A stretch of 63,428 bases of DNA from Escherichia coli (GCF_024223415.1 NZ_CP100504.1); one strand, 5' to 3'. Shown: positions 4,423-62,582, counted from the stretch's first letter. The notes: generated by a model not told the origin, from the sequence alone. Made by a program: numbers and translations.

Positions 4423-4433
4423 ATCCGCCCAAC

Positions 4434-20739: not shown

Positions 20740-20810
20740 CGTAGTAAGTTAATTTTCATTAACCACCACGAGGCATCCCTATGTCTAGTCCACATCAGGA
20801 TAGCCTCTTA
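20740..20810 (-). ncRNA. sok: Sok antisense RNA (approximate)
   Basis: Placed by position antisense to the mok/hok leader, from the known organisation of hok/sok loci; exact ends not determinable by eye. Confidence 0.35.
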
Positions 20811-20993
20811 CCGCGCTTTGCGCAAGGAGAAGAAGGCCATGAAACTACCACGAAGTTCCCTTGTCTGGTGTGTGTTGATCGTGTGTCTCACACTGTTGAT
20901 ATTCACTTATCTGACACGAAAATCGCTGTGCGAGATTCGTTACAGAGACGGACACAGGGAGGTGGCGGCTTTCATGGCTTACGAATCCGGTAA
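20781..20993 (+). CDS. mok: Mok (modulation of killing) overlapping reading frame
   Basis: 70-aa ORF overlapping hok in another frame, as in R1 hok/sok. Confidence 0.55.
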
Positions 20994-20997
20994 GTAG
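20839..20997 (+). CDS. hok: Hok family membrane toxin
   Basis: 52-aa product [52 protein letters not shown]. Confidence 0.85.
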
Positions 20998-21268
20998 CAA
21001 CCTGGAGGCGGGCGCAGGCCCGCCTTTTCAGGACTGATGCTGGTCTGACTACTGAAGCGCCTTTATAAAGGGGCTGCTGGTTCGCCGGTAGCCCCTTTCT
21101 CCTTGCTGATGTTGTACGGGCATGAACAACCTGACTTCAGGAAGGTCGTTTCCCTTCAGGAACGGGGATGAACGCGCGCCTGCGGCGCCCGTTCTTTTCC
21201 CCCGCCTTCTCTGGTTATGGCCTGTCAGAAATCACATCACCTTCCCTGTGATTATTCTCTTTTTCTTC

Positions 21269-21897
21269 CTGCTCTGATTCTGACTACTGCAGTGTTGTCC
21301 TGTCTGCCGGCGCACCTTCGGCTCCCGGCTGCCTGGCGGCATCCGGTCGTCAGGCCCGACTCCGACAGGCAGCTGCTGGCGCACCTGCCAGTCTCCGCCG
21401 AACCCGCTGGCGCGGTTTCGGGCTGTCGCTACGGTCCGATGCGTGAAAACCCCGGGCTTGCAGCGACCGTTCCGGTCGCGCCGCCTCTGTCGCGCCGTGG
21501 CCTGCGCTCCAGGCATCCCGGCAAAAAGACGCCGGGATGTAAGGCGCAACGCCGTTTCGCAAACCGCGCTTCACGTCGTTGCGGCGGGTCCCTGCCCGTT
21601 GTTGTGTCCGGTGCCATTCACCTGTTTAAGCCCCTGTCGCCGGGGGCTGATACAGCCACAACCTGCCGCACTGACTGTCCAGGGTAAATGAACAGCCCAC
21701 AAAATTTTTTACCCAAAACCCGGTAAAAAATTTTGCGTTCTGCCCAGGACAGGTGCGTCAGGCCGTGGCAGTGATGCCCCTTGCGGCGAAGGTTCTCAAA
21801 CAGGTGATGGTGAATACCGGAGGGAACAAAGAGCAGGTCCCCGCAAAACGTCAAAACCGCGGCTCCCGAAACTCAACAGATGATGGGGGCTGAAAAC
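21269..21897. repeat. leading-region ~620-bp direct repeat, copy 3 (Frpo/ssi-like)
   Basis: Near-identical to copies 1 and 2; ends about 20 bp upstream of the ORF at 21918. Confidence 0.85.
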
Positions 21898-21917
21898 CAG
21901 AGAGAGGAGAAAGCTGG

Positions 21918-22205
21918 ATGAGTACCCGAAATATCCACGTTAACACCGCGTCGTACACGATTCTTGTTGCCGGGAGGGAAAAAAACACCGGGGAAGAGTG
22001 GGACGTCCTGGAATTCAGCAGCCTGACTGAGCTGAAAAAATATCGCAAAAGCCACCCGGAAAAGATGGCCTTCAGCTATAGCTACGCGCTCAGCCGGGGT
22101 GTGGATACGCAGTTCCGCCATATCAACATTGCGGAAGCCGATCACTTCAAACAGTTCCTGCGTCAGATTAAGCGTGCCGGCCTCGATATCCGGGCGATCT
22201 GCTGA
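21918..22205 (+). CDS. hypothetical leading-region protein
   Basis: 95-aa ORF with RBS gaggaga; first gene downstream of repeat copy 3. Confidence 0.5.
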   Translation: MSTRNIHVNTASYTILVAGREKNTGEEWDVLEFSSLTELKKYRKSHPEKMAFSYSYALSRGVDTQFRHINIAEADHFKQFLRQIKRAGLDIRAIC

Positions 22206-22323
22206 CCGGATGTGATGAATATCCCTCCTGATTGTTGCAATCTTGTTAATGGAGATCGGGAGAGATGATATTAAGCGGAAAAATTTTTTATTAAATTTAT
22301 TCTTTCATAAAGGAGTAGCTGTT

Positions 22324-23145
22324 ATGCGATTAGCTTCCCGTTTTGGTCGGTATAATTCCATCCGTCGTGAACGTCCTTTAACGGATGATGAATTAATGCA
22401 GTTCGTGCCTTCGGTATTTTCCGGTGATAAACATGAGTCCCGGAGTGAACGTTATACGTATATTCCAACAATCAATATCATCAATAAGTTACGTGATGAA
22501 GGTTTCCAGCCATTCTTTGCCTGTCAGAGTCGGGTTCGTGATTTGGGACGCCGCGAATACAGTAAACATATGTTACGTCTTCGCAGGGAAGGGCATATTA
22601 ACGGGCAGGAAGTTCCTGAAATTATCCTGCTTAATTCACATGATGGTTCATCCAGTTATCAGATGATCCCCGGAATTTTTCGTTTTGTCTGCACAAATGG
22701 CCTGGTGTGCGGAAATAATTTTGGCGAAATCCGTGTTCCACATAAAGGTGATATTGTCGGGCAGGTTATCGAGGGAGCGTATGAAGTGCTCGGTGTCTTT
22801 GATAAGGTCACTGATAATATGGAGGCGATGAAAGAAATTCATCTTAACAGTGACGAGCAACATTTATTTGGCAGAGCTGCACTGATGGTCAGGTATGAAG
22901 ATGAAAATAAAACGCCAGTGACGCCTGAACAAATAATTACTCCCCGTCGTCGGGAAGATAAAAAGAACGATCTCTGGACAACCTGGCAGCGGGTTCAGGA
23001 GAATATGATAAAAGGTGGATTATCGGGGCGAAGTGCCTCCGGGAAAAATACCAGGACAAGAGCCATTACAGGTATTGATGGTGATATAAGAATCAACAAG
23101 GCGTTATGGGTGATTGCCGAACAGTTCAGAAAGTGGAAGTCATGA
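22324..23145 (+). CDS. DUF932-like leading-region protein
   Basis: 273 aa from the ATG at 22324 (RBS aggag); conserved partner of orf169 near oriT in F-like plasmids. Confidence 0.65.
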   Translation: MRLASRFGRYNSIRRERPLTDDELMQFVPSVFSGDKHESRSERYTYIPTINIINKLRDEGFQPFFACQSRVRDLGRREYSKHMLRLRREGHINGQEVPEIILLNSHDGSSSYQMIPGIFRFVCTNGLVCGNNFGEIRVPHKGDIVGQVIEGAYEVLGVFDKVTDNMEAMKEIHLNSDEQHLFGRAALMVRYEDENKTPVTPEQIITPRRREDKKNDLWTTWQRVQENMIKGGLSGRSASGKNTRTRAITGIDGDIRINKALWVIAEQFRKWKS

Positions 23146-23150
23146 TAATA

Positions 23151-23187
23151 TAAGTAAAGCCCCGAAAATTTTTCGGGGCTTTACTTA
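23151..23187. terminator. rho-independent-type terminator hairpin
   Basis: Perfect palindrome taagtaaagccccgaaaa-t-tttcggggctttactta starting 6 nt after the stop of the upstream gene. Confidence 0.55.
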
Positions 23188-23439
23188 TATTATCATTCTT
23201 CGGCATCGCTGTGTCGTCTGATATACCTCAATTCCATCAACCGGCTTTCCGGTTGTCTGTAAATATTGTGCCCGCGAAAAATGGTCTGGCAGGAGGCTGC
23301 GCAGTTACCGGGTATATATAAGATGGGTTCCCGCTTCGCGGGGCTTCGGCCAGTCAGCATTGTCACTCATATGATATTTTTGTGTGTGGCCTTCATGCCG
23401 CTTTTGCGGCATAACCGGTATCTGACAATGTCTGTAAGA

Positions 23440-23949
23440 TTAATTGTTCTGCACGCTGTTAATTTCCGGAAGTGATTTCTTCGTGACCGGAATCCGGATA
23501 CCTTTACTGATTTTTATCCCGGTATAAATCCGGTAAACCTCTGATGCGTAGGCAAGACGTCTCTGGTTCTGGCGTTCGGTCTTCCTGAATCCGGCATTGT
23601 ATGCACCAACGGCCTCCCAGGAGACGCCCCATTTTTTAAAGGCTATTGCCAGATAATAAGCACCGGTATAAATGTTCATGCAGGGATCTGTTGTCAGATG
23701 TTCCGGCTTAATTCCGTAGCGGGCCAGTTCGTTAAAATGCTGGGAATCTACCTGCATCAGTCCGCTGCCATATCCCGTTACCGGATTAATACCGATGGCA
23801 TTAACCCGGTAACGGGATTCTTTCCATGATATTGCTCTCAGTAAATCAGGATCTATTTTGTAATCCCGGCCTGCAAGATCAAAGCAATCAGTGGCATGGC
23901 AGATCTCATTTATAAACATCAGGCAGATGGCTAACATCCATTTTTTCAT
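23440..23949 (-). CDS. lytic transglycosylase-like protein (orf169 / gene X), SLT domain
   Basis: 169 aa from [12 protein letters not shown] with RBS gaggtgg; signal peptide; directly adjacent to oriT. Confidence 0.8.
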
Positions 23950-24364
23950 TTTTCCACCTCTGGTGACTTTATCCGTAAATAATTTAACCCACTCCACAAA
24001 AAGGCTCAACAGGTTGGTGGTTCTCACCACCAAAAGCACCACACCCCACGCAAAAACAAGTTTTTGCTGATTTACGTTTTAAATCATGTAATTAACAAAT
24101 GCTATTTATATTTAATTATTCTGAATTATTAAATAGAGAGTCGTTGGCGATCCTGTTACGACCCTATAGCGACCCTTATTAGGATCAGTACTGACAATTT
24201 TCATGAAAAACATTGATATATATTAGGGGCACCCCTAGCGCCGGATCGCATTTTTTTATAGGATAATCCTAGAGGCGCTACTAGGAGTGTCTTTCTTACT
24301 TGTAAACACTATATTCATATTTATACTGAAAAGTTCATTGCTTAATGATGAAAGGTTTTATTTT
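23950..24364. other. oriT (origin of transfer) with F-type nic site
   Basis: Minus strand reads gcaaaaacttgtttttgcgtggggtgt/ggtgcttttggtggtgagaaccacc, matching the F oriT nick region; nick falls between 24039 and 24040 on the minus strand; AT-rich region upstream of traM. Confidence 0.8.
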
Positions 24365-24748
24365 ATGGCCAGAGTAATTTTGTATATCAGTAATGATGTC
24401 TATGATAAAGTAAATGCGATAGTTGAACAGCGTCGTCAGGAGGGGGCAAGAGATAAAGATATAAGCCTTTCAGGAACTGCTTCAATGCTTCTTGAACTGG
24501 GGCTTCGCGTATATGAGGCTCAGATGGAGCGTAAAGAGTCTGCATTTAATCAGACTGAGTTTAATAAATTACTTCTTGAATGTGTTGTAAAAACACAGTC
24601 ATCAGTAGCGAAAATTTTGGGTATTGAGTCTCTAAGTCCCCATGTCTCCGGGAATCCAAAGTTTGAATATGCCAATATGGTTGAAGATATTCGTGAGAAG
24701 GTGTCATCTGAGATGGAACGATTTTTTCCAAAAAATGATGACGAATAA
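24365..24748 (+). CDS. traM: relaxosome protein TraM
   Basis: 127 aa from MARVILYISNDVYDKVNAIVEQRRQEGARDKD...; matches TraM. Confidence 0.9.
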   Translation: MARVILYISNDVYDKVNAIVEQRRQEGARDKDISLSGTASMLLELGLRVYEAQMERKESAFNQTEFNKLLLECVVKTQSSVAKILGIESLSPHVSGNPKFEYANMVEDIREKVSSEMERFFPKNDDE

Positions 24749-24809
24749 AAAAGAATTAAAAGTTGATTTACTTCAAATAACAGAGTTTTGATCTGGTTCA
24801 ATTTGATGA

Positions 24810-24910
24810 CAATTAACCACATAAAGGTTATATTAATTATGTGGTTAATGCCACGTTAAAAATTTAGTTTGAATCGCCAATGCAGGGAGTAGCACCTCCC
24901 TGCATTGACT
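24810..24910 (-). ncRNA. finP: FinP antisense RNA (approximate)
   Basis: Two inverted repeats in the traJ leader (ttaaccacat...atgtggttaa; tgcagggag-tagcac-ctccctgca) just upstream of the traJ RBS. Confidence 0.5.
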
Positions 24911-24938
24911 GTCCATAGAATCCTTTGAGGAGGTTCCT

Positions 24939-25590
24939 ATGTGTGCAATGGATCGTAGAGAAAGAGCACTCATTCGTCAATTACATTTCCCTAACGACTT
25001 AAGAGAGAACATTTCATTATTGAAATATCCCGTATGTATACGTTTTGAAGACGGTTCTTTTATAGGAACAAATCACAGCTTCGAGCGATTTATTAAATTA
25101 TCATATTGTTCATGTGATGAATGGTTTGAGCATTTGACTTTAGAATCCAAGTTACAACTATCAAGATCTGAGATGGATTCATATTTTTCAACTTATGGTG
25201 TAAGTTATATTAATAATGTTTCAATTAGTGCTATGTCATGGAGCATGGTTATCGAAACACTCAATACAAATGAAGGTTGTTTTTTCGTCTGGCGATTTAT
25301 TGAGTCAAATGACAAAAATATTTCAACATCTTTGATTTCTAAATCTAATGATGGGTTGATATTTTTTCTGGGGAATATATAGATATTGAACCCTATCTTG
25401 TAGGGTTTAGCCATTATTATTCTGCAGCAGTGACAAAAATTAGTATATCTAAATCCAAGAAGAAAACGATGAATTTTTTCAAAATGAATGGGTTTAGTTC
25501 CAGAGATCACTGGTTGGATGAAATGCTCAGGTCTGAAAAAATACTATTTCTATATGATAGAGTAAAAGGAATATTAAAAAACAAGTGTTA
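24939..25590 (+). pseudogene. traJ: transfer activator TraJ, apparent frameshift
   Basis: 147-aa ORF stops at 25382, but the +2 frame is open from 25350 to 25590; the frame change coincides with a T6 run (25363-25368); combined length ~215 aa. Confidence 0.55.
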
Positions 25591-25715
25591 ATTTATTGTG
25601 AACTTAAGGGAACCATCGGTTCCCTTTTTTGTTAATATAATTTACGTTATTTTTGTTTCTATTTTTATGGATTCGTATAATTATATTTAATTATCTAAGT
25701 GGCTGAGGAGGAGAC

Positions 25716-25943
25716 TTGAGCAGAAATATAATAAGGCCTGCTCCGGGCAATAAAGTTTTACTGGTATTGGACGATGCTACTAATCACAAGCTCTTAGGTG
25801 CCCGGGAGCGTAGCGGGAGAACAAAAACTAATGAGGTGCTAGTCAGATTACGTGATCATCTGAGCCGTTTTCCTGACTTTTATAATCCGGATGCAATAAA
25901 GGAGGGAACAGGGGAAACTGATTCGATAATTAAAGATCTTTAA
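25716..25943 (+). CDS. traY: relaxosome accessory protein TraY (short R100-type)
   Basis: 75-aa ORF with TTG start after ggaggaga; position between traJ and traA. Confidence 0.8.
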   Translation: MSRNIIRPAPGNKVLLVLDDATNHKLLGARERSGRTKTNEVLVRLRDHLSRFPDFYNPDAIKEGTGETDSIIKDL

Positions 25944-25975
25944 GTTTATTAATCTATCCACAATAGAGGTAACTT

Positions 25976-26335: not shown

Positions 26336-26349
26336 CAGGAAATAAAACG

Positions 26350-26661: not shown

Positions 26662-26682
26662 AACTGATATCAGGATTGTTAT

Positions 26683-31609: not shown

Positions 31610-31632
31610 TATACAAGCGGAGATAATAAAGA

Positions 31633-45696: not shown

Positions 45697-48515
45697 ATGA
45701 AGTTTATGTGATTGCCGGTGGTGAGTGGTTGCGGAATAACCTGAATGCCATTGCCGCCTTTATGGGAACCAGAACGTGGGATTCCATTGAAAAAATTGCG
45801 CTCACATTGTCTGTTCTCGCGGTGGCCGTAATGTGGGTACAGCGGCACAACGTGATGGATTTGCTGGGCTGGGTGGCCGTGTTTGTGCTTATCAGCCTGC
45901 TGGTTAATGTCCGTACATCGGTGCAGATTATTGATAACAGTGACCTGGTCAAAGTTCACCGGGTGGATAATGTGCCGGTCGGACTGGCGATGCCACTTTC
46001 ACTGACGACCCGTATCGGGCATGCAATGGTGGCCAGTTACGAGATGATCTTCACGCAACCGGACAGTGTCACCTACAGCAAAACGGGGATGCTGTTTGGC
46101 GCAGAACTGGTATCAAAAAGCACCGACTTTTTGTCCCGTAATCCGGAAATCGCCAATCTTTTCCAGGATTATGTGCAGAACTGCGTGATGGGGGATATTT
46201 ACCTGAACCACAAATATACGCTGGAGGAGCTGATGGCCTCCGCTGATCCCTACACGCTGATTTTTTCCCGCCCCAGCCCGCTGCGGGGCGTTTATGACAG
46301 CAATAATAATTTCGTAACCTGTAAGGACGCTTCGGTTTCGCTGAAAGACAAGCTGAATCTGGACACACAGAGTGGCGGAAAAACCTGGCATTATTATGCC
46401 CAGCAGCTATTTGGCGGACGCCCTGATCCTAACCTGCTGTTCAGTACGCTGATTGGCGACAGTTACAGTTACTTCTATGGCTCAAGTAAATCAGCCAGCC
46501 AGATCATCCGCCAGAATGTCACCATCAATGCGCTGAAGGAGGGGATCACCAGTTATGCCGCACGTAATGGTGATTCGGCCAGCCTGGTGAATCTGGCCAC
46601 CACGTCATCGATGGAGAAACAACGTCTGGCACATGTATCAATCGGTCATGTGGCGATGCGGACACTGCCCATGACGCAGACCATCCTGACGGGGATCGCC
46701 ATCGGTATTTTCCCGCTCCTGGTACTGGCGGCTGTATTCAACAAACTGACGCTGTCCGTCCTGAAAGGCTATGTGTTTGCCCTGATGTGGTTGCAGTCAT
46801 GGCCAATGTTGTACGCCATTCTGAACAGCGCCATGACATTTTATGCAAAGCAGAATGGTGCACCGGTGGTGCTCTCGGAAATTTCACAGATACAGCTGAA
46901 ATACTCCGATCTGGCTTCCACTGCCGGGTATCTTTCCATGATGATCCCGCCATTATCCTGGATGATGGTCAGGGGGCTCGGGGCAGGATTTTCCAGTGTG
47001 TACAGCCATTTCGCTTCCTCTGCTATCAGCCCGACCGCCAGTGCAGCAGGCAGTGTGGTTGACGGTAATTACTCCTACGGCAACATGCAGACGGAGAACG
47101 TGAACGGCTTCAGCTGGAGCACCAACAGCACCACGTCGTTTGGTCAGATGATGTACCAGACCGGCAGTGGCGCAACTGCCACACAGACCCGTGACGGTAA
47201 TATGGTGATGGATGCAAGCGGAGCGATGTCCCGGTTACCGGTCGGCATCAATGCAACGCGTCAGATTGCGGCGGCACAACAGGAAATGGCCCGGGAAGCA
47301 TCGAACAGAGCAGAAAGTGCCCTGCATGGGTTCAGCAGCAGTATTGCCAGTGCCTGGAACACGCTCAGTCAGTTTGGTTCTAACCGGGGGAGCAGTGATT
47401 CTGTCACCGGTGGTGCTGACAGTACGATGAGTGCACAGGACTCCATGATGGCCAGCCGTATGCGCAGTGCAGTGGAAAGCTATGCGAAGGCGCATAATAT
47501 CAGTAATGAGCAGGCGACTCAGGAACTGGCATCCAGAAGTACGAGAGCTTCTGCCGGGATGTATGGAGATGCTCATGCTGAATGGGGGGTTAAACCTGGA
47601 ATTCTTGGTGTTGGTGGCGGCTTAGGTGTTAAAGGTGGTGGTCGCGCTGGTATTGATTGGGAAGATAATGATGCGCATACGGCAAGTAGTAATACTCAGT
47701 CGAGCCATAATGCTCGTCATGATATCGATGCCAGAGCTACACAAGACTTTAAAGAGGCCAGCGATTACTTTACCAGTCGCAAGGTCAGTGAGTCCGGCAG
47801 CCATACTGACAATAATGCTGATTCCCGTGTGGATCAGTTGTCTGCAGCCCTGAATTCAGCGAAGCAGAGTTACGACCAGTTCACGACGAATATGACCCGC
47901 AGCCATGAATATGCTGAAATGGCATCCCGTACTGAAAGCATGAGTGGGCAGATGAGTGAAGACCTGTCGCAACAGTTTGCACAGTATGTGATGAAACACG
48001 CGCCGCAGGATGCCGAAGCTATTCTGACAAACACCAGTTCACCGGAGATTGCAGAACGCCGTCGGGCTATGGCGTGGTCTTTTGTTCAGGAACAGGTGCA
48101 GCCTGGTGTTGATAATGCCTGGCGTGAATCCCGTGGGGACATCGGTAAAGGAATGGAGAGCGTACCTTCGGGTGGTGGCAGCCAGGATATTATTGCTGAT
48201 CATCAGGGGCATCAGGCCATTATTGAGCAAAGAACGCAGGACAGTAATATCCGTAATGATGTAAAACATCAGGTTGATAATATGGTCACAGAATACCGAG
48301 GCAATATCGGAGATACTCAGAGCAGCATACGTGGCGAAGAAAATATTGTAGGAAGACAGTATTCTGAACTACAAAATCACCATAAAACAGAGGCATTATC
48401 TCAGAATAATAAATATAATGAAGAAAAATCGGGTCAGGAAAGAATGCCCGGGGCTGACAGTCCACAGGAACTGATGAAAAGAGCAAAGGAGTATCAGGAT
48501 AAGCACAAGCAATAA
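45693..48515 (+). CDS. traG: TraG (pilus assembly, mating-pair stabilisation, entry-exclusion target)
   Basis: 940 aa with N-terminal polytopic domain and large periplasmic C-terminal domain. Confidence 0.95.
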   Translation: MNEVYVIAGGEWLRNNLNAIAAFMGTRTWDSIEKIALTLSVLAVAVMWVQRHNVMDLLGWVAVFVLISLLVNVRTSVQIIDNSDLVKVHRVDNVPVGLAMPLSLTTRIGHAMVASYEMIFTQPDSVTYSKTGMLFGAELVSKSTDFLSRNPEIANLFQDYVQNCVMGDIYLNHKYTLEELMASADPYTLIFSRPSPLRGVYDSNNNFVTCKDASVSLKDKLNLDTQSGGKTWHYYAQQLFGGRPDPNLLFSTLIGDSYSYFYGSSKSASQIIRQNVTINALKEGITSYAARNGDSASLVNLATTSSMEKQRLAHVSIGHVAMRTLPMTQTILTGIAIGIFPLLVLAAVFNKLTLSVLKGYVFALMWLQSWPMLYAILNSAMTFYAKQNGAPVVLSEISQIQLKYSDLASTAGYLSMMIPPLSWMMVRGLGAGFSSVYSHFASSAISPTASAAGSVVDGNYSYGNMQTENVNGFSWSTNSTTSFGQMMYQTGSGATATQTRDGNMVMDASGAMSRLPVGINATRQIAAAQQEMAREASNRAESALHGFSSSIASAWNTLSQFGSNRGSSDSVTGGADSTMSAQDSMMASRMRSAVESYAKAHNISNEQATQELASRSTRASAGMYGDAHAEWGVKPGILGVGGGLGVKGGGRAGIDWEDNDAHTASSNTQSSHNARHDIDARATQDFKEASDYFTSRKVSESGSHTDNNADSRVDQLSAALNSAKQSYDQFTTNMTRSHEYAEMASRTESMSGQMSEDLSQQFAQYVMKHAPQDAEAILTNTSSPEIAERRRAMAWSFVQEQVQPGVDNAWRESRGDIGKGMESVPSGGGSQDIIADHQGHQAIIEQRTQDSNIRNDVKHQVDNMVTEYRGNIGDTQSSIRGEENIVGRQYSELQNHHKTEALSQNNKYNEEKSGQERMPGADSPQELMKRAKEYQDKHKQ

Positions 48516-52974: not shown

Positions 52975-55900
52975 TGATGAGTATCGCGCAGGTCAGATCG
53001 GCCGGAAGTGCCGGTAACTATTATACCGACAAGGATAATTACTATGTACTGGGCAGCATGGGAGAACGCTGGGCCGGCAGGGGGGCTGAACAGCTGGGAC
53101 TGCAGGGCAGTGTCGATAAGGATGTTTTTACCCGTCTTCTGGAGGGAAGGCTGCCGGACGGAGCGGATCTAAGCCGCATGCAGGATGGCAGTAATAAGCA
53201 TCGTCCCGGCTACGACCTGACCTTCTCCGCCCCCAAAAGTGTCTCCATGATGGCCATGCTCGGGGGGGACAAACGTCTTATTGAAGCACATAACCAGGCC
53301 GTGGACTTTGCTGTTCGTCAGGTGGAGGCGCTGGCCTCCACACGGGTGATGACGGACGGACAGTCAGAAACGGTACTGACCGGTAATCTGGTGATGGCAC
53401 TGTTTAACCACGACACCAGTCGCGATCAGGAACCACAGTTACATACGCATGCGGTGGTGGCTAATGTCACGCAGCATAACGGTGAGTGGAAGACACTGAG
53501 CAGTGACAAAGTGGGGAAAACGGGGTTCATTGAGAATGTGTACGCTAATCAGATTGCCTTTGGCAGGCTCTACCGGGAAAAACTGAAAGAGCAGGTTGAG
53601 GCGCTGGGCTATGAAACCGAAGTGGTGGGTAAGCACGGTATGTGGGAGATGCCGGGCGTACCGGTGGAGGCCTTTTCCGGACGCTCACAGACTATCCGGG
53701 AGGCCGTCGGGGAAGATGCCTCGCTGAAATCCCGGGATGTGGCGGCACTGGATACGCGAAAATCCAAACAGCACGTCGATCCTGAAGTCAGAATGGCTGA
53801 ATGGATGCAGACGCTGAAGGAAACCGGGTTCGACATCCGGGCATATCGTGACGCGGTGGATCAGCGTGCGGAGACCCGCACGCAGGCGCCCGGGGCTGTT
53901 TCACAGGAGGGGCCGGATGTGCAGCAGGCGGTGACACAGGCGATTGCCGGATTAAGTGAACGAAAAATGCAGTTTACGTACACGGACGTGCTGGCCAGAA
54001 CGGTCGGTATACTGCCGCCGGAAAATGGTGTGATTGAACGGGCACGCGCCGGTATCGATGAGGCCATCAGTCGTGAGCAGCTTATCCCCCTCGACCGTGA
54101 GAAGGGGCTGTTCACATCAGGAATTCATGTGCTCGATGAGCTGTCCGTCCGGGCACTCAGTCGTGACATCATGAAACAGAACCGGGTGACCGTACATCTG
54201 GAGAAAAGTGTCCCCCGGACGGCTGGTTACAGCGATGCGGTCAGTGTTCTGGCACAGGACCGTCCGTCGCTGGCCATTGTGTCCGGGCAGGGCGGTGCAG
54301 CCGGGCAGCGTGAGCGGGTGGCTGAACTGGTCATGATGGCCCGGGAGCAGGGGCGGGAGGTGCAGATTATCGCCGCTGACCGTCGCTCGCAGATGAACCT
54401 GAAGCAGGATGAACGGCTGTCCGGTGAGCTGATAACCGGACGTCGTCAGCTGCAGGAGGGCATGGCCTTCACGCCGGGCAGTACTGTTATCGTCGACCAG
54501 GGCGAAAAACTCTCCCTGAAAGAGACGTTAACCCTGCTGGACGGTGCCGCACGTCATAACGTACAGGTCCTGATAACCGACAGCGGGCAGCGAACCGGTA
54601 CAGGCAGTGCACTGATGGCCATGAAGGATGCCGGGGTGAACACGTATCGCTGGCAGGGCGGAGAACAGCGACCGGCCACCATCATCAGTGAACCGGACCG
54701 GAATGTCCGCTATGACCGGCTGGCCGGAGATTTTGCGGCCAGCGTGAAAGCCGGAGAAGAGAGCGTGGCACAGGTCAGCGGGGTACGGGAACAGGCCATA
54801 CTGACACAGGCCATTCGCAGTGAGCTGAAAACACAGGGCGTGCTCGGACACCCGGAGGTGACCATGACGGCACTGTCACCGGTCTGGCTGGACAGCCGGA
54901 GCCGTTATCTGCGGGATATGTACCGACCGGGGATGGTGATGGAGCAGTGGAACCCGGAGACACGCAGTCATGACCGCTATGTTATCGACCGGGTGACGGC
55001 GCAGAGTCACAGCCTGACCCTGCGGGATGCGCAGGGCGAAACGCAGGTGGTGCGTATTTCCTCCCTGGACAGCAGCTGGTCGCTGTTCCGGCCGGAAAAA
55101 ATGCCGGTGGCAGACGGCGAGCGACTGAGGGTGACAGGGAAAATTCCCGGACTCCGCGTCTCCGGCGGTGACCGCCTGCAGGTGGCATCCGTCAGTGAAG
55201 ATGCGATGACGGTTGTTGTGCCGGGGCGGGCTGAACCGGCCACCCTGCCTGTGGCTGATTCACCGTTCACGGCACTGAAGCTGGAGAACGGCTGGGTGGA
55301 AACGCCCGGGCATTCCGTCAGCGACAGTGCGAAGGTTTTTGCCTCCGTCACACAGATGGCAATGGACAACGCCACCCTGAACGGTCTGGCCCGCAGTGGT
55401 CGTGATGTCCGGCTGTATTCTTCACTGGATGAAACCCGTACTGCGGAAAAACTTGCCCGCCATCCCTCCTTTACGGTGGTTTCTGAGCAGATAAAGGCGC
55501 GTGCCGGTGAGACATTGCTGGAAACCGCTATCAGTCTGCAGAAAGCCGGGCTTCACACGCCGGCACAGCAGGCTATTCATCTGGCCCTTCCTGTGCTGGA
55601 AAGTAAAAACCTGGCCTTCAGCATGGTGGACCTGCTGACAGAGGCGAAGTCGTTTGCTGCAGAAGGAACCAGTTTTACTGAACTGGGAGGGGAAATCAAT
55701 GCGCAGATAAAACGCGGTGATTTACTGTATGTGGATGTGGCAAAAGGCTATGGCACAGGCCTGCTGGTTTCCCGTGCGTCGTATGAGGCAGAAAAGAGCA
55801 TTCTTCGCCATATTCTCGAAGGTAAGGAGGCGGTCACGCCGCTGATGGAGAGAGTACCTGGCGAACTCATGGAGAAACTGACATCAGGACAGCGTGCCGC

Positions 55901-58244
55901 CACCCGCATGATACTGGAAACGTCCGACCGTTTCACGGTGGTGCAGGGCTATGCCGGTGTGGGTAAGACCACACAGTTCCGGGCGGTGATGTCAGCCGTG
56001 AACATGCTGCCGGAGAGTGAGCGTCCCCGTGTCGTTGGGCTGGGTCCCACGCACCGCGCGGTCGGGGAGATGCGCAGCGCCGGCGTGGATGCACAGACAC
56101 TGGCGTCCTTTCTGCATGACACGCAGCTGCAGCAGCGCAGCGGAGAAACGCCGGATTTCAGCAACACGCTGTTCCTGCTCGATGAGAGCTCAATGGTGGG
56201 CAATACCGACATGGCACGGGCATACGCCCTGATTGCGGCCGGTGGCGGTCGTGCTGTGGCCAGCGGTGACACGGACCAGCTGCAGGCCATCGCGCCCGGT
56301 CAGCCTTTCCGTCTCCAGCAGACGCGCAGTGCTGCCGATGTGGTCATCATGAAGGAGATTGTGCGTCAGACGCCGGAACTGCGGGAGGCGGTATACAGCC
56401 TGATTAACCGGGATGTGGAAAGGGCACTGTCCGGGCTTGAGAGTGTGAAACCGTCTCAGGTTCCCCGTCAGGAGGGCGCATGGGCACCGGAGCACTCCGT
56501 GACGGAGTTCAGTCACAGCCAGGAAGCGAAACTGGCAGAAGCGCAGCAGAAGGCGATGCTGAAAGGCGAGGCTTTCCCGGATATCCCCATGACACTGTAT
56601 GAAGCCATTGTCCGCGACTATACCGGCAGGACACCGGAAGCACGGGAGCAGACGCTGATTGTCACACACCTGAATGAGGACCGGCGCGTACTGAACAGCA
56701 TGATTCATGATGCACGGGAAAAGGCCGGTGAGCTGGGCAAAGAGCAGGTCATGGTGCCTGTCCTGAACACAGCGAATATACGTGACGGAGAACTGCGTCG
56801 TCTCTCCACCTGGGAGAATAACCCGGATGCCCTTGCCCTGGTGGATAGTGTGTATCACCGGATTGCCGGTATCAGCAAGGATGACGGGCTGATAACCCTG
56901 GAGGATGCGGAAGGTAACACGCGGCTGATTTCGCCCCGGGAGGCGGTGGCTGAAGGCGTCACACTGTACACCCCGGACACCATCCGGGTGGGAACCGGTG
57001 ACCGGATGCGCTTCACGAAGAGTGACCGGGAGCGCGGTTATGTGGCCAACAGCGTCTGGACGGTGACAGCGGTTTCCGGTGACAGTGTCACGCTGTCGGA
57101 CGGACAGCAGACCCGGGTGATTCGCCCCGGTCAGGAGCGGGCAGAGCAACATATTGACCTGGCTTATGCCATCACCGCCCACGGTGCGCAGGGGGCAAGT
57201 GAAACCTTTGCCATCGCGCTTGAAGGCACGGAAGGTAACCGGAAACTGATGGCAGGCTTTGAGTCAGCTTATGTAGCCCTGTCGCGTATGAAGCAGCATG
57301 TGCAGGTGTACACCGATAACCGTCAGGGCTGGACGGATGCCATCAACAATGCCGTACAGAAAGGAACTGCCCACGATGTGTTTGAACCGAAACCGGACCG
57401 GGAGGTCATGAATGCAGAGCGGCTGTTCAGTACGGCGCGGGAGCTGCGGGACGTGGCGGCAGGCCGTGCCGTTCTTCGTCAGGCGGGACTTGCCGGGGGA
57501 GACAGTCCTGCACGGTTTATTGCTCCGGGACGTAAATATCCGCAACCGTATGTGGCACTGCCGGCTTTTGACCGTAACGGCAGGTCCGCCGGTATCTGGC
57601 TGAACCCGCTGACCACGGATGACGGAAACGGGCTGCGGGGATTCAGCGGTGAAGGCCGGGTGAAAGGCAGCGGGGATGCACAGTTTGTGGCCCTGCAGGG
57701 CAGCCGTAACGGAGAGAGCCTGCTGGCTGATAATATGCAGGATGGTGTCCGGATTGCCCGTGATAATCCTGACAGCGGTGTGGTGGTGAGAATCGCCGGT
57801 GAAGGCCGTCCGTGGAATCCCGGTGCCATCACCGGTGGTCGCGTGTGGGGGGATATCCCGGACAACAGCGTCCAGCCGGGGGCCGGAAATGGTGAACCGG
57901 TTACAGCTGAAGTGCTGGCACAGCGGCAGGCTGAAGAGGCCATCCGCCGTGAAACGGAACGTCGCGCAGATGAAATTGTCCGTAAAATGGCAGAGAACAA
58001 ACCTGACCTGCCGGATGGCAGAACAGAGCAGGCTGTCAGGGAGATTGCCGGGCAGGAGCGTGACCGGGCTGCCATAACTGAACGGGAAGCCGCGCTGCCG
58101 GAGAGTGTGCTGCGTGAATCACAACGGGAGCGGGAAGCGGTCCGGGAGGTTGCCCGGGAAAATCTGCTGCAGGAGCGTCTGCAGCAGATGGAGCGGGATA
58201 TGGTCCGTGACCTGCAGAAAGAGAAAACCCTGGGCGGAGACTGA
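52974..58244 (+). CDS. traI: relaxase/helicase TraI
   Basis: 1756 aa starting [27 protein letters not shown] (relaxase domain) followed by helicase motifs. Confidence 0.95.
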   Translation: MMSIAQVRSAGSAGNYYTDKDNYYVLGSMGERWAGRGAEQLGLQGSVDKDVFTRLLEGRLPDGADLSRMQDGSNKHRPGYDLTFSAPKSVSMMAMLGGDKRLIEAHNQAVDFAVRQVEALASTRVMTDGQSETVLTGNLVMALFNHDTSRDQEPQLHTHAVVANVTQHNGEWKTLSSDKVGKTGFIENVYANQIAFGRLYREKLKEQVEALGYETEVVGKHGMWEMPGVPVEAFSGRSQTIREAVGEDASLKSRDVAALDTRKSKQHVDPEVRMAEWMQTLKETGFDIRAYRDAVDQRAETRTQAPGAVSQEGPDVQQAVTQAIAGLSERKMQFTYTDVLARTVGILPPENGVIERARAGIDEAISREQLIPLDREKGLFTSGIHVLDELSVRALSRDIMKQNRVTVHLEKSVPRTAGYSDAVSVLAQDRPSLAIVSGQGGAAGQRERVAELVMMAREQGREVQIIAADRRSQMNLKQDERLSGELITGRRQLQEGMAFTPGSTVIVDQGEKLSLKETLTLLDGAARHNVQVLITDSGQRTGTGSALMAMKDAGVNTYRWQGGEQRPATIISEPDRNVRYDRLAGDFAASVKAGEESVAQVSGVREQAILTQAIRSELKTQGVLGHPEVTMTALSPVWLDSRSRYLRDMYRPGMVMEQWNPETRSHDRYVIDRVTAQSHSLTLRDAQGETQVVRISSLDSSWSLFRPEKMPVADGERLRVTGKIPGLRVSGGDRLQVASVSEDAMTVVVPGRAEPATLPVADSPFTALKLENGWVETPGHSVSDSAKVFASVTQMAMDNATLNGLARSGRDVRLYSSLDETRTAEKLARHPSFTVVSEQIKARAGETLLETAISLQKAGLHTPAQQAIHLALPVLESKNLAFSMVDLLTEAKSFAAEGTSFTELGGEINAQIKRGDLLYVDVAKGYGTGLLVSRASYEAEKSILRHILEGKEAVTPLMERVPGELMEKLTSGQRAATRMILETSDRFTVVQGYAGVGKTTQFRAVMSAVNMLPESERPRVVGLGPTHRAVGEMRSAGVDAQTLASFLHDTQLQQRSGETPDFSNTLFLLDESSMVGNTDMARAYALIAAGGGRAVASGDTDQLQAIAPGQPFRLQQTRSAADVVIMKEIVRQTPELREAVYSLINRDVERALSGLESVKPSQVPRQEGAWAPEHSVTEFSHSQEAKLAEAQQKAMLKGEAFPDIPMTLYEAIVRDYTGRTPEAREQTLIVTHLNEDRRVLNSMIHDAREKAGELGKEQVMVPVLNTANIRDGELRRLSTWENNPDALALVDSVYHRIAGISKDDGLITLEDAEGNTRLISPREAVAEGVTLYTPDTIRVGTGDRMRFTKSDRERGYVANSVWTVTAVSGDSVTLSDGQQTRVIRPGQERAEQHIDLAYAITAHGAQGASETFAIALEGTEGNRKLMAGFESAYVALSRMKQHVQVYTDNRQGWTDAINNAVQKGTAHDVFEPKPDREVMNAERLFSTARELRDVAAGRAVLRQAGLAGGDSPARFIAPGRKYPQPYVALPAFDRNGRSAGIWLNPLTTDDGNGLRGFSGEGRVKGSGDAQFVALQGSRNGESLLADNMQDGVRIARDNPDSGVVVRIAGEGRPWNPGAITGGRVWGDIPDNSVQPGAGNGEPVTAEVLAQRQAEEAIRRETERRADEIVRKMAENKPDLPDGRTEQAVREIAGQERDRAAITEREAALPESVLRESQREREAVREVARENLLQERLQQMERDMVRDLQKEKTLGGD

Positions 58245-58263
58245 TACAGGAAGACAAACACTG

Positions 58264-59010
58264 ATGACAACGGATAACACGAATACGACACGTAACGATT
58301 CACTGGCTGCACGGACCGATACCTGGTTGCAGTCGTTTCTGGTCTGGTCACCCGGACAGCGGGATATCATCAAAACGGTGGCACTGGTGCTGATGGTACT
58401 GGACCACATCAATCTGATATTCCAGCTGAAGCAGGAATGGATGTTTCTGGCCGGGCGAGGAGCCTTTCCGCTGTTTGCCCTGGTGTGGGGGCTGAATCTG
58501 TCCCGTCATGCGCATATCCGGCAACCGGCCATTAACCGGCTGTGGGGATGGGGAATTATTGCCCAGTTCGCATATTATCTGGCCGGCTTTCCCTGGTATG
58601 AGGGGAATATCCTGTTTGCCTTTGCAGTGGCGGCACAGGTGCTGACGTGGTGTGAAACGCGCAGTGGGTGGCGTACGGCAGCGGCCATTCTTCTGATGGC
58701 CCTGTGGGGGCCCTTGTCCGGCACCAGTTACGGCATTGCCGGGCTGCTGATGCTGGCAGTCAGCCACCGGCTGTACCGGGCGGAAGACAGAGCGGAACGT
58801 CTGGCGCTGGTCGCCTGCCTGCTGGCTGTTATTCCGGCGCTTAACCTTGCCACCAGTGATGCAGCGGCGGTGGCCGGTCTTGTGATGACGGTGCTGACCG
58901 TTGGTCTGGTGTCGTGTGCAGGAAAATCATTACCCCGTTTCTGGCCCGGGGATTTTTTCCCGGTATTCTACGCCTGTCATCTGGCTGTGCTGGGCGTTCT
59001 GGCGCCGTGA
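58264..59010 (+). CDS. traX: pilin N-acetylase TraX
   Basis: 248-aa polytopic membrane protein from MTTDNTNTTRN; last tra gene before finO. Confidence 0.85.
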   Translation: MTTDNTNTTRNDSLAARTDTWLQSFLVWSPGQRDIIKTVALVLMVLDHINLIFQLKQEWMFLAGRGAFPLFALVWGLNLSRHAHIRQPAINRLWGWGIIAQFAYYLAGFPWYEGNILFAFAVAAQVLTWCETRSGWRTAAAILLMALWGPLSGTSYGIAGLLMLAVSHRLYRAEDRAERLALVACLLAVIPALNLATSDAAAVAGLVMTVLTVGLVSCAGKSLPRFWPGDFFPVFYACHLAVLGVLAP

Positions 59011-59064
59011 CGGGTGTGGTATCTTTGACCGTAACAGGATGATTCGTCAGAGGCAGAACACAGC

Positions 59065-59625
59065 ATGACAGAGCAGAAGCGACCGGTACTGACACTGAAG
59101 CGGAAAACGGAAGGGGAGACGCCTGTCCGCAGCCGGAAAACCATCATCAATGTCACCACGCCACCAAAGTGGAAGGTGAAAAAGCAGAAGCTGGCCGAGA
59201 AAGCAGCCCGGGAAGCAGAGCTGGCGGCAAAAAAAGCGCAGGCCAGACAGGCACTGTCCATTTATCTGAACCTGCCCACGCTGGATGAGGCCGTGAATAC
59301 CCTGAAACCCTGGTGGCCGGGATTGTTTGACGGTGACACGCCCCGGCTTCTGGCCTGCGGTATCCGGGACGTGTTACTGGAAGACGTGGCGCAGCGGAAT
59401 ATCCCGCTCTCGCATAAAAAACTGCGCAGGGCGCTGAAGGCCATCACCCGTTCAGAAAGCTATCTGTGTGCCATGAAAGCCGGTGCCTGCCGGTATGACA
59501 CGGAAGGGTATGTGACGGAGCATATTTCTCAGGAGGAGGAAGCGTATGCGGCAGCGCGTCTGGATAAAATCCGCCGCCAGAACCGGATAAAGGCAGAACT
59601 TCAGGCCGTGCTTGATGAGAAATAA
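59065..59625 (+). CDS. finO: fertility inhibition protein FinO (intact)
   Basis: 186 aa starting [14 protein letters not shown]...; matches FinO; uninterrupted. Confidence 0.9.
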
Positions 59626-59755
59626 AAAAGCCTCCGTCAGAGAGAGGAGGCAGGGAAATAAGGCTTAAAGGAAATAACTTCCGTACCCAAAAGGAAATCG
59701 GTCCACTGAATTATTTAACACCATAATGCTGACGGGTTAAAGAGGAGTGATAAAG

Positions 59756-59968
59756 ATGAATGGATTCAGAAACAGTTCACGGAACGGTCAGGTCTGGCGC
59801 TGGCAGCGTGCCGGAAGCCGGGCCGTTATTCTGGAGGTCAGTGGACGCTGGATGGAAGCGGCAGAAGCATGGCGACGGGCTGCCGGTGTTGCACCCCGGA
59901 CAGACTGGCAGCAGTTTGCCCGAAAAAGGGCTGAACAATGCCACCGACGCTGCCGGGGAAGGGTGTAA
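59756..59968 (+). CDS. small Arg/Trp-rich hypothetical protein
   Basis: 70-aa ORF with strong RBS agaggag 8 nt upstream. Confidence 0.45.
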   Translation: MNGFRNSSRNGQVWRWQRAGSRAVILEVSGRWMEAAEAWRRAAGVAPRTDWQQFARKRAEQCHRRCRGRV

Positions 59969-60212
59969 CGAAAAAGCAGCCTTCATTACTCCAGGGATTC
60001 AGAAGGCTGAATAATGCATGAGATTTGCTTTTTTTAATATCCGGTCGGGCAGTATGACCGGACAGTTCTGAGTAGCACAGAGTTTTTTCCGTATTAAGTC
60101 GTGATTTTATATTTTGTGATTAATTTCGCAAAATAAGGTGTTATTCAGTGTGTGCTGCGATATTCAGGATTACCTGAAATACAGGTGCCATTTATCTGAT
60201 ATGGAGAATAAT

Positions 60213-60674
60213 ATGAGGAAATATATTCCACTGGTATTATTTATCTTTTCATGGCCGGTATTGTGTGCAGATATTCATGGACGGGTTGTTCGTGTACTGG
60301 ACGGTGATACCATCGAGGTCATGGACTCACGGAAGGCAGTGCGGATCAGGCTGGTAAATATTGATGCACCGGAAAAGAAACAGGATTATGGCCGGTGGTC
60401 AACGGACATGATGAAATCACTGGTTGCAGGAAAAACGGTTACCGTCACATATTTTCAGCGAGATCGTTATGGTCGTATTCTCGGGCAGGTTTATGCACCA
60501 GACGGAATGAATGTTAATCAGTTTATGGTCCGGGCCGGGGCTGCCTGGGTATATGAGCAGTACAACACAGATCCCGTGCTGCCTGTCCTTCAGAACGAAG
60601 CCAGACAACAAAAACGTGGGCTCTGGTCAGATGCTGATCCGGTTCCCCCCTGGATATGGAGACACCGTAAATAA
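60213..60674 (+). CDS. nuc: secreted thermonuclease (staphylococcal nuclease homologue)
   Basis: 153 aa from MRKYIPLVLFIFSWPVLCA (signal peptide); SNase-like motifs (VLDGDTIEV, RLVNIDAPE); RBS ggaga. Confidence 0.75.
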   Translation: MRKYIPLVLFIFSWPVLCADIHGRVVRVLDGDTIEVMDSRKAVRIRLVNIDAPEKKQDYGRWSTDMMKSLVAGKTVTVTYFQRDRYGRILGQVYAPDGMNVNQFMVRAGAAWVYEQYNTDPVLPVLQNEARQQKRGLWSDADPVPPWIWRHRK

Positions 60675-60719
60675 AGCGATGGCAATCTTATCATTCATCT
60701 GTTCTCAGCGGGAATAAAA

Positions 60720-60929
60720 ATGGCGAAAACAAAACAGGAATGGCTGTATCAGTTACGGCGATGTTCATCAGTCAATACGCTGGAAAAAATTATTCATAAA
60801 AACAGAGACAGTTTATTAAACAGTGAACGTGAATCATTTAATTCAGCAGCAGACCACCGGTTAGCGGAATTAATCACCGGAAAGTTATATGACAGGATAC
60901 CAAAAGAGATATGGAAATATGTAAGGTAA
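60720..60929 (+). CDS. small hypothetical protein
   Basis: 69-aa ORF 37 bp upstream of the DUF2726-like gene. Confidence 0.4.
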   Translation: MAKTKQEWLYQLRRCSSVNTLEKIIHKNRDSLLNSERESFNSAADHRLAELITGKLYDRIPKEIWKYVR

Positions 60930-60966
60930 TAATTCAACATAATTAATTTCCAGGAACAGATAAATA

Positions 60967-61557
60967 ATGAAGTTGATTATTTTTATTCTCATTGTTCTGA
61001 TTATTGCAGCGTTACTTATCCGGATTATCCTCAGAAGTGTAAATCAGCATTCTCCTTTGCTGATGCAGTTACATGCGGCAGGTATACGGACCGGTGATGC
61101 AGAGCGAATACTGTCCGGCGGTGAATACTGGCAACGTCAGAAGACGCTGCTGACAGAAAGGGAAGTCAGTTTTATGAAAGGACTGTTCAGAATTGTGGAT
61201 ATGAAGCGGTGGTATCTGTGTCCGCAGGTACGGGTCGCGGATATCGTCCAGCTGAACGGGAATATCCGGCCACGATCACGCCAGTGGTGGCAGTTATTCA
61301 GGATGGTGTCTCAGTGGCATGTTGATGTGGTTATCGTTGAGCGGCGTTCGTTCAGTATTGTTGCAGCAGTAGAGCTGGATGATGCCAGCCATTTACGACC
61401 GGAACGCAGACGCCGGGATATTCTTCTGGAAGAGGTTCTGAGGCAGGCTGGTATTCCGTTGCTCAGAAGCCACGATGCCAGAAAACTGCTGCAGATGACC
61501 GGAGAATGGCTGAATACAACAGGGGCTGATCAGCAGTCCCCGGAACATCGTAGCTGA
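60967..61557 (+). CDS. membrane-anchored DUF2726-like protein (predicted nuclease-related fold)
   Basis: 196 aa with an N-terminal TM helix (MKLIIFILIVLIIAALLIRIIL) and acidic and basic residues spaced like a PD-(D/E)xK-type motif (HVDVVIVERR...VELDD); family call from memory. Confidence 0.55.
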   Translation: MKLIIFILIVLIIAALLIRIILRSVNQHSPLLMQLHAAGIRTGDAERILSGGEYWQRQKTLLTEREVSFMKGLFRIVDMKRWYLCPQVRVADIVQLNGNIRPRSRQWWQLFRMVSQWHVDVVIVERRSFSIVAAVELDDASHLRPERRRRDILLEEVLRQAGIPLLRSHDARKLLQMTGEWLNTTGADQQSPEHRS

Positions 61558-61640
61558 CGCCTTCGCGTTGCTCAGTTGTCCAACCCCGGAAACGGGAAAA
61601 AGCAAGTTTTCCCCGCTCCCGGCGTTTCCGTAATAAAAAA
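61554..61640. repeat. ~80-bp conserved intergenic motif, copy B
   Basis: ctgacgccttcgcgttgctcagttgtccaaccccgg ... ctcccggcgtttccgtaataaaaaacgggaaatgg; begins at the DUF2726-like stop codon. Confidence 0.8.
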
Positions 61641-61711
61641 CGGGAAATGGTGGTCACAGAATAAATTCCGGAACTACCTGTACCCAAACTTTATATAATA
61701 AAGGTGAATAT

Positions 61712-62161
61712 ATGGAATATGATGATGTATCAGAATTGATGATTAAGCGTGAACACAATATTCTTATTGTTGGGAATTCTGCCTCCCACATTGATAAGTT
61801 TTTTAAGGAGTATTCTATACCAAGTTCTAAATATTATGATTTCACTCAGATTAACAGTGATTCAGATGTAGAGAGAAATGAGAATGCTGTCTCTTTTATC
61901 AGGGATGCAATGAATAGTGAAGAGCTCACAATCATTTTTAATTGCGTTGGGTGGCCTGATTTAGGTGGTGGATCAGCAGTATCACTGTTTGCAATGATGG
62001 CCAGAAAATTTGGTAAACAACTTATTGTCGCTGTAAGTGAAAAGTATGCCATCAAATTAAAAGACAACTTTGATATTATTGGGATGTTGTCATATGGTAA
62101 AGAAAATTTTATTGCCATGAGTCATACGAAAAGCGAGTTAACTGGAGGGAAACGTCGGTAA
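61712..62161 (+). CDS. hypothetical protein with a Gly-rich (GGGS) loop
   Basis: 149-aa ORF with RBS aaaggtga; pattern of hydrophobic strands (ILIVGN, TIIFNCVGWPDLGGGSAVS, QLIVAV) suggests a Rossmann-like fold; AT-rich. Confidence 0.5.
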   Translation: MEYDDVSELMIKREHNILIVGNSASHIDKFFKEYSIPSSKYYDFTQINSDSDVERNENAVSFIRDAMNSEELTIIFNCVGWPDLGGGSAVSLFAMMARKFGKQLIVAVSEKYAIKLKDNFDIIGMLSYGKENFIAMSHTKSELTGGKRR

Positions 62162-62206
62162 CGGATTAAAAATAGATGTAAATAAAAAGCATACTTATTG
62201 GCTGGA

Positions 62207-62250
62207 GTGACGCCTTCGTGCTTCGGTAGTAAAAAACGGGAAATGAAGGT
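62207..62250. repeat. partial copy C of the conserved intergenic motif
   Basis: tgacgccttcgtgcttcggtagtaaaaaacgggaaatgaagg shares both ends with copy B but lacks the central part; lies upstream of srnB. Confidence 0.6.
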
Positions 62251-62375
62251 AATAGTCAGCAACAGGGAATGTGGTATTATCGCGGCGGGTGTCTGAGCCT
62301 TTCTGGTTCAGGCAAGACGCAGGTACCAGAAATGCGAAGACCCCACTTGTTAATCCATTAACTCGTGAGGTCTGC

Positions 62376-62582
62376 ATGAAGTACTTGAACACTACTGATT
62401 GTAGCCTCTTCCTTGCAGAGAGGTCAAAGTTTATGACGAAATATGCCCTTATCGGGTTGCTCGCCGTGTGCGCCACGGTGTTGTGTTTTTCACTGATATT
62501 CAGGGAACGGTTATGTGAACTGAATATTCACAGGGGAAATACAGTGGTGCAGGTAACTCTGGCCTACGAAGCACGGAAGTAA
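62376..62582 (+). CDS. srnB: SrnB (Hok/Gef-family membrane toxin locus)
   Basis: 68-aa ORF MKYLNTTDCSLFLAERSKFMTKYALIGLLAVCATVLCFSLIFRERLCELNIHRGNTVVQVTLAYEARK; Hok-like core starts at MTKYAL; a GC-rich fold-back region follows. Confidence 0.8.
   Translation: MKYLNTTDCSLFLAERSKFMTKYALIGLLAVCATVLCFSLIFRERLCELNIHRGNTVVQVTLAYEARK

Follow-up and report, generated by a model that had tools for sequence, protein, structure and literature searches.

Two Hok-family loci, ParMRC and a RelE/ParE-superfamily pair as the probable maintenance kit of an F-like IncFII plasmid of Escherichia coli

Plasmid identity and overview of maintenance modules

The Escherichia coli sequence NZ_CP100504.1 (assembly GCF_024223415.1), a stretch of 63,428 bp analysed over its full length and called the window below, is a complete, circular, F-like IncFII plasmid, very probably equipped with a classical multi-layer maintenance kit: two Hok-family killer loci (hok/mok/sok and srnB/srnC), a type II toxin-antitoxin (TA) pair, and the ParMRC partition system. 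Expression of each module, and a stabilising effect on this plasmid, are what its family would lead one to expect. An earlier reading made from the DNA alone, here the sequence-only reading, had named the same four modules and placed them between positions 20740 and 62582. The arrangement is already known, its interpretation as layered stability is textbook, and the mosaic of the plasmid is composed of modules already described.

The GTG start of the IncFII initiator gene repA1 (1-858) opens the window, and the tap leader peptide is interrupted at the window's end. Placing the final 67 bases directly before the first 8 closes the tap open reading frame (ORF) exactly and yields a 24-aa peptide the same as that of pHK09, so the plasmid is complete and circular. 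An Rfam scan returned CopA, FinP, the traJ 5' untranslated region (traJ_5), four antisense RNAs derived from pHK01, and two matches to the model "sok"; the first three of these place the window among the F-like plasmids. By megablast the backbone is an F-like mosaic whose nearest group is that of the IncFII plasmids pHK01 and pHK09, at about 97% identity, and the ISEcp1-blaCTX-M-14 region of that group is absent. No near-identical whole plasmid was found in PLSDB, where every record covers less than 80% of the first 25 kb at any single location (76% at best); the best E. coli complete genome covers 81% of the same 25 kb.

The hok/mok/sok locus

The first Hok-family locus consists of the following elements.

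20630-20659, plus strand: hok mRNA promoter (TGGTCA, 18-nt spacer, TATGAT; 9/12 in the promoter scan)
20666-21063, plus strand: full-length hok mRNA, 398 nt, with 5' tac, ucb, mok Shine-Dalgarno sequence (SD), mok and hok ORFs, 3' hairpin, and fbi
20727-20790, minus strand: predicted gene for the Sok antisense RNA, about 64 nt, antisense to the SD and start codon of mok
20781-20993, plus strand: mok reading frame, 70 aa, overlapping hok in a different frame, with SD GAGG at 20770-20773
20797-20825, minus strand: putative Sok promoter (TTGCGC, 17-nt spacer, TATCCT; read from the sequence)
20839-20997, plus strand: hok toxin gene, 52 aa (Pfam HOK_GEF, E 1.2e-21; NCBIfam PRK09738)
21007-21029, plus strand: 3' hairpin of the hok mRNA

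Hok matches the NCBIfam Hok subfamily PRK09738 over its full length at 126 bits (cut-off 73), and the Rfam model "sok" matches 20665-20841 at 88.9 bits; the gathering score of that model is 59, and both Hok-family loci exceed it. Together with the Pfam match and the overlapping mok frame, these results bear out the sequence-only reading, which had recognised a hok/mok/sok locus at 20740-20997. That interval takes in the ORFs and most of Sok and misses the promoter, the 5' tac and ucb elements and the 3' fbi element. Position 20740 is not an edge of the locus, as it lies inside the Sok gene; the locus runs from the promoter at 20630 to the end of the mRNA at 21063. The overlap of mok with hok fits a hok/sok-type arrangement, in which translation of hok is predicted to depend on that of mok.

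The 5' end of the hok mRNA, GGCGCUUGAGG (20666), sits 7 nt past the promoter, and flm of F has the same promoter region. Folding of the full-length mRNA gives a minimum free energy (MFE) of -175.9 kcal/mol (z -8.25), with nt 1-10 paired to nt 387-396 in a tac-fbi closure and the mok SD (nt 105-109) paired to nt 71-75 of ucb. This predicted fold corresponds to the published closed, untranslatable form, and residues G4, C5, T6, A70, G71, C72, and A106 (the last in the GAGG SD) fall at the positions of the R1 study (PMC9841398). Sok RNA, whose ends were set by the promoter position and the U-tract, is predicted to form a long hairpin with a U-rich tail (-27.7 kcal/mol, z -6.1). On the minus strand, 20797-20825 is what we take to be its promoter, by likeness to the Sok promoter of R1.

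The R1 locus (parB) resembles this one in its 52-aa Hok, its 70-aa overlapping mok, and its Sok lying over the mok start, and in an mRNA of 398 nt with the same tac-fbi closure, SD-ucb pairing and nucleotide numbering; in this likeness, drawn from that numbering, no difference from R1 was seen. The Hok protein itself is presumably identical to that of R1. The flmABC locus of F (stm/parL) occupies the same place between psiA and oriT, with DNA 92.9% identical; FlmA differs from the Hok found here by one residue (H39/Y), and the Sok/FlmB hairpin region differs from that of F by 3-nt and 2-nt indels and several substitutions. The window carries the R1 allele of the hok locus, not the F allele. 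The 601 bp surrounding hok are 100% identical on many plasmids, with at least 5000 matching records.

The srnB/srnC locus and its predicted independence from hok

The second Hok-family locus lies between finO and the copB-copA-repA1 replicon.

62253-62280, plus strand: srnB mRNA promoter (TAGTCA, 16-nt spacer, TG-TATTAT; 9/12 in the scan, extended -10)
62287-62648, plus strand: full-length srnB mRNA, about 362 nt, with 5'-3' closure
62325-62391, minus strand: predicted gene for the SrnC antisense RNA, covering SD and ATG (62367-62378)
62376-62582, plus strand: srnB ORF, 68 aa, or 49 aa (the Hok-family toxin) from the internal ATG at 62433
62427-62398, minus strand: SrnC promoter (TTGACC, 18-nt spacer, TACAAT; 10/12 match)
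62866-63126: copB, starting 284 bp past srnB, as in F
63253-63344: CopA (Rfam)

The coordinates 62376-62582 given by the sequence-only reading for srnB are exact, and so is its placing of the gene next to the replicon, with copB and CopA immediately beyond. The product is a Hok-family toxin (Pfam HOK_GEF, E 5.2e-09) whose 49-aa and 68-aa forms are both 100% identical to those of F; the upstream start is in frame with the internal ATG, and the 49-aa form is the one annotated in F. The Rfam model "sok" matches 62287-62443 at 93.5 bits. Folding of the srnB mRNA gives an MFE of -155.1 kcal/mol (z -7.19), with nt 1-9 paired to nt 353-361 and the SD (nt 80-85) paired. SrnC, whose ends we infer, would overlie the srnB SD (62367-62370) and ATG (62376), and its hairpin is predicted at -25.6 kcal/mol (z -3.9).

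The locus shares with srnB/srnC of F its slot between finO and copB of an FII/FIC-type replicon, the in-frame upstream start, the SD, the antisense promoter and the 5'-3' closure. Over 495 bp it shares 95.4% DNA identity with F, and the mRNA region carries five substitutions relative to F, four of them in the ORF and all four synonymous; 2895 records match the srnB region. Matches this numerous, at either Hok-family locus, are not due to chance. The genes upstream differ, being a DUF2726 protein gene and a 149-aa ORF here. Sequence shared with F sets in at position 62258, on the -35 hexamer of the srnB promoter, which reads TAGTCA in the window and TATTAA in F; this indicates that the recombination junction touches the promoter. 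The srnB gene of F is reported to mediate the killing of plasmid-free segregants (Nielsen 1991).

Comparison of the hok and srnB loci by blastn found no match longer than 12 nt and none with E of 1 or below. In the absence of significant DNA similarity, the two antisense RNAs should not cross-neutralise, and cross-talk between the loci is ruled against; judged by their sequences, the two can act as independent layers. A third Hok gene was sought by six-frame phmmer with Hok and SrnB as queries, which gave just these two loci, the next E-value being 0.09.

The ParMRC partition system

ParMRC lies on the minus strand at 8085-9565; the sequence-only reading was right that it is present, and its span of 20740-62582 does not contain it.

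8085-8438, minus strand: parR, 117-aa adaptor (Pfam Plasmid_stab_B, E 6e-30)
8438-9400, minus strand: parM, 320-aa actin-like ATPase (R1 ParM, PDB 1mwk, E 2e-212 over residues 1-320)
9416-9565, minus strand: parC centromere, with iterons at 9565-9511 (5 x 11 bp), core at 9510-9471, and iterons at 9470-9416 (5 x 11 bp)

ParM has the Pfam StbA_N and ParM C-terminal domains. ParR, encoded directly downstream with a 1-nt overlap, also matches ParR (StbB) of pB171 (PDB 2jd3, E 1.3e-09). Upstream of parM, parC was read from the sequence as ten 11-bp units, five on each side of a 40-bp core promoter; TRF reports period-11 arrays at 9417-9451 and 9531-9567. We take this layout to match that of R1 parC. 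The R1 system (parA/stb) has a crystallised ParM essentially identical to the one here, a 117-aa ParR, and five 11-bp iterons to either side of the promoter, and no difference from it was seen.

The type II pair and the slot it occupies

The type II pair is located just past repA1 and the replication origin. It too is real and outside the span to which the sequence-only reading had assigned it, and the designation "ParE-type" used there, as opposed to RelE-type, is not established.

1927-2190, plus strand: antitoxin, 87 aa, whose C-terminal 40 residues resemble PaaA2
2180-2479, plus strand: RelE/ParE-superfamily toxin, 99 aa (Pfam ParE_toxin, E 8.1e-13), its start overlapping the antitoxin stop by 11 nt

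The C-terminal part of the antitoxin matches PaaA2 (PDB 3zbe) at E 0.0038, and the Pfam PaaA2 model scores 18.7 bits, under its cut-off of 27. No ParD or ribbon-helix-helix domain was found in the antitoxin, which databases label "plasmid stabilization protein". A search for operators in the type II operon found a 9-nt palindrome at 1838-1851 as the sole inverted repeat. Both toxin and antitoxin recur with identical sequence, each on at least 1000 contigs.

Sequence and modelled structure assign the pair to the RelE/ParE superfamily and suggest that it is probably ParE-like. That the toxin is instead a RelE-like, ribosome-dependent mRNA endonuclease and not a ParE-like gyrase poison is possible, though we consider it doubtful. 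The Pfam model that the toxin matches, PF05016, spans both the RelE and ParE groups, and the NCBI name is just "RelE/ParE family". The AlphaFold2 model has moderate confidence (pLDDT 63.6) and a beta-alpha-alpha-beta3 topology, and Foldseek matches it to ParE and RelE structures alike with probability 1.0 and TM about 0.6; RelE, HigB and YoeB score near ParE. Most of the top matches are nevertheless ParE-type; the one highest in identity, at 24%, is ParE2 from the PaaA2-ParE2 complex, the partner of the very antitoxin that the C-terminus here resembles. The sole sequence match of the toxin in PDB, and so its closest there, is Caulobacter ParE1 (E 0.04); a profile built from 30 homologues brought no gain against PDB sequences, giving noise (a sirtuin at E 0.28, ParE1 at E 0.72). 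One database source labels the toxin ParE1/3/4.

PaaA2-ParE2 of E. coli O157:H7 and ParD-ParE of Caulobacter and RK2 have the RelE/ParE fold and an upstream, overlapping antitoxin gene, as here, and the toxin-binding part of PaaA2 aligns with the C-terminus of this antitoxin. The solved ParE toxins, however, are just 20-24% identical to the toxin in the window, and its antitoxin differs from PaaA2 and ParD in an extra 45-residue N-terminal part that matches no family. A regulator like the PaaR2 of PaaA2-ParE2 was not recognised; the upstream 86-aa ORF has no family match.

This ORF (1560-1820) lies between the origin region and the TA pair and is found on many plasmids as "hypothetical protein". 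Homology to the pHK09 backbone stops inside it, at 1709, and restarts at 3112. Two-gene addiction modules occupy the same slot beside the IncFII origin elsewhere (parD/kis-kid in R1, pemIK in R100, yacAB in pHK01-type plasmids), and the occupant varies: pHK09 has yacAB, pTB-nb3 has a RelE/ParE-family pair with the toxin gene first, and the window has the ParE-like pair. The slot at 1710-3111 also holds an orphan colicin/pyocin immunity gene.

How the modules would act together

In ParMRC, ParR would bind the ten parC iterons and filaments of ParM would drive sister plasmids apart. With its tac-fbi ends closed and the mok SD sequestered, the stable hok mRNA would be kept inert, and it would undergo slow trimming from its 3' end. 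The unstable Sok RNA would block translation of mok, and hence of hok, for as long as a resident plasmid supplies it; plasmid-free segregants would run out of Sok and be killed by the membrane toxin. The srnB/srnC locus is expected to work in the same mode with an unrelated antisense sequence, as an independent second layer, while in the type II pair a labile antitoxin would neutralise a toxin of RelE/ParE fold.

The leading region and the role of hok there

The hok locus lies 3 kb from the nic site, followed by psiA, psiB, a parB-like gene, and ssb, an order as in F (psiB-psiA-flm).

24033-24049, minus strand: oriT nic-site motif GTGGGGTGTGGTGCTTT, an exact match and single occurrence, with 0.02 expected by chance

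An F-type nic motif on the minus strand means that the minus strand is transferred and that coordinates below 24 kb enter the recipient first. The nic position and the gene order agree with the sequence-only reading, which had put hok in the leading region.

This setting lends some weight to another role for the locus, in which hok/sok would act mainly after entry by conjugation, in early establishment, in excluding phage or in anti-defence, with vertical stability left to srnB and the type II pair. The closeness of hok to nic, amid ssb, psiB, anti-restriction and orphan methylase genes, is in keeping with such a role; the transferred minus strand would be the template for hok mRNA and not for Sok, and hok/Sok is reported to be enriched in leading regions, with a possible role in establishment (Samuel 2024). 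We nonetheless regard it as unlikely to be the main role. The locus is of the parB type of R1, whose stabilisation of its plasmid is the founding example of post-segregational killing, and hok here owns a promoter of the double-stranded kind, with no single-strand promoter repeat directly upstream (the nearby repeats are at 16043-16496 and 21447-21897). The two roles are not exclusive, and the sequence does not separate them.

We give only a small chance to a more far-reaching view in which the two Hok loci are specialised by position rather than redundant and, separately, the ParE-like pair, whose PaaA2-like antitoxin has an N-terminal half of no assigned family, is an uncharacterised subtype in a swappable TA slot beside the IncFII origin. 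The incoming T-strand would then template hok-sense RNA, with Sok made only once the complementary strand exists; new transconjugants might pass through a brief toxin-primed "commitment" or abortive-defence state, and ordinary vertical loss would be left to srnB next to the replicon.

A direct repeat of about 450 bp is present in three leading-region copies (12694-13122, 16043-16496, and 21447-21897), and hok sits between the second and third. The repeats match two repeats of F, one preceding ssb and the other preceding the gene that follows flm, and are probably single-strand promoter elements of the Frpo/ssi type. A 187-aa ORF at 15054-15617 matches PADLOC orphan/type II methyltransferase models. 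Both pHK09 and F carry a "DNA methylase" annotation over the region equivalent to 9896-10837, with no PADLOC match for the ORF here, and an antirestriction gene lies between these two. The methylase and antirestriction genes fit the anti-defence character of leading regions.

Two genes of the plasmid are frameshifted. In traJ (24939-25600) a 1-nt deletion in a T-run near 25361 leaves 147 aa, where the pZ1834-2 allele, 99.4% identical, encodes 217 aa. If the traJ frameshift is true, the activator of the tra operon is lost and the plasmid may be transfer-deficient; a homopolymer sequencing error is the alternative. The ParB/Spo0J-like gene of the leading region (17398-19354), which encodes 652 aa in F and pHK09, is split by a 2-nt deletion at about 18569 into ORFs of 401 and 274 aa.

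Evidence against an intact multi-layer kit

Some of the results weigh against the interpretation of the plasmid as carrying an intact, classical kit. The Sok promoter agrees with the consensus at only 8 of 12 positions, is under the scan threshold and was read by eye. MFE folding of 3'-truncated hok and srnB mRNAs did not give the published open tac-ucb form; for hok nt 1-361 the 5' end is in a local hairpin (nt 2-29) and the SD is still paired, a result in which MFE may miss the published conformer. The promoter scan of the type II operon found no sigma-70-like promoter, and the Foldseek list for its toxin mixes ParE, PfiT, PrpT and ParE2 with RelE, HigB and YoeB. Lastly, the frameshifts in traJ and the parB-like gene point to some decay, or sequencing error, in the molecule.

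That one or more modules are inactive remnants, leaving stabilisation less layered than it appears, would accord with those frameshifts and with a type II operon lacking a recognisable promoter, and is improbable given that all toxin and antitoxin ORFs are full length, that the promoters and RNA structure elements are intact, that SrnB is identical to that of F, and that the 601-bp hok region and the type II toxin and antitoxin sequences recur widely in the forms described above.

Cargo and other genes

The sequence-only reading had found little obvious selectable cargo, a fair description: resistance genes are absent from the plasmid, and the cargo consists of iron-uptake genes and an orphan immunity gene.

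2837-3112: orphan nuclease-colicin immunity gene
3190-7230: eitABCD, iron uptake (substrate-binding protein, FecCD permease, ABC ATPase, and MFS transporter)

The other non-backbone genes, in the interval from finO to srnB, encode an SNase-family nuclease, Hha, a DUF2726 protein, and the 149-aa ORF. This cluster (60138-62161) stands where F has other sequence. Its DUF2726 protein has a weak restriction-endonuclease-like match, and the 149-aa ORF has no family match. PADLOC, run on neighbouring ORFs of unassigned function, returned matches to the SNase domain and the orphan methyltransferase only, and no defence system.

The four antisense RNAs first described on pHK01 were located by Rfam as follows.

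13267-13369, minus strand: AS-pc01
46412-46497, minus strand: AS-traG
55823-55899, minus strand: AS-traI
59865-60048, minus strand: AS-pc02

AS-pc02 (202 bits) is wholly antisense to a small unannotated ORF (59760-60014) directly after finO.

Comparison with other IncF plasmids and significance

F has flm in its leading region and srnB beside the copB gene of RepFIC, that is, Hok-family loci at the same two positions. R1 is the source of parA (ParMRC) and parB (hok/sok), and its type II pair parD also lies beside the replicon. The same layering is present on F and on many resistance-laden IncF plasmids, and is not special to a cargo-poor plasmid. In this the sequence-only reading, which had presented layered stabilisation as a feature of a plasmid with little cargo, is to be amended, while the four modules stand as it named them and look intact.

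Published surveys show how common such combinations are. Among 103 IncF plasmids surveyed by PCR, 86 had hok-sok and 59 had srnBC, and the average plasmid carried 2.54 addiction systems. Most of the sequenced F33 plasmids in a comparative study (its Table 2) have pemKI, hok-sok and srnBC together. A recent survey, which gives Hok, SrnB, Flm and PndA as the plasmid homologues studied, reports that hok is enriched on large conjugative plasmids with partition systems and notes its presence in leading regions.

The annotation given here records a relative of the pHK01-type backbones that lacks CTX-M, carries eitABCD and has another type II module in the slot beside the replicon. Its use beyond correct annotation is small, although it may interest those who track the evolution of IncFII backbones. 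A partition system combined with several independent addiction modules explains why plasmids of this kind persist without selection and are hard to cure.

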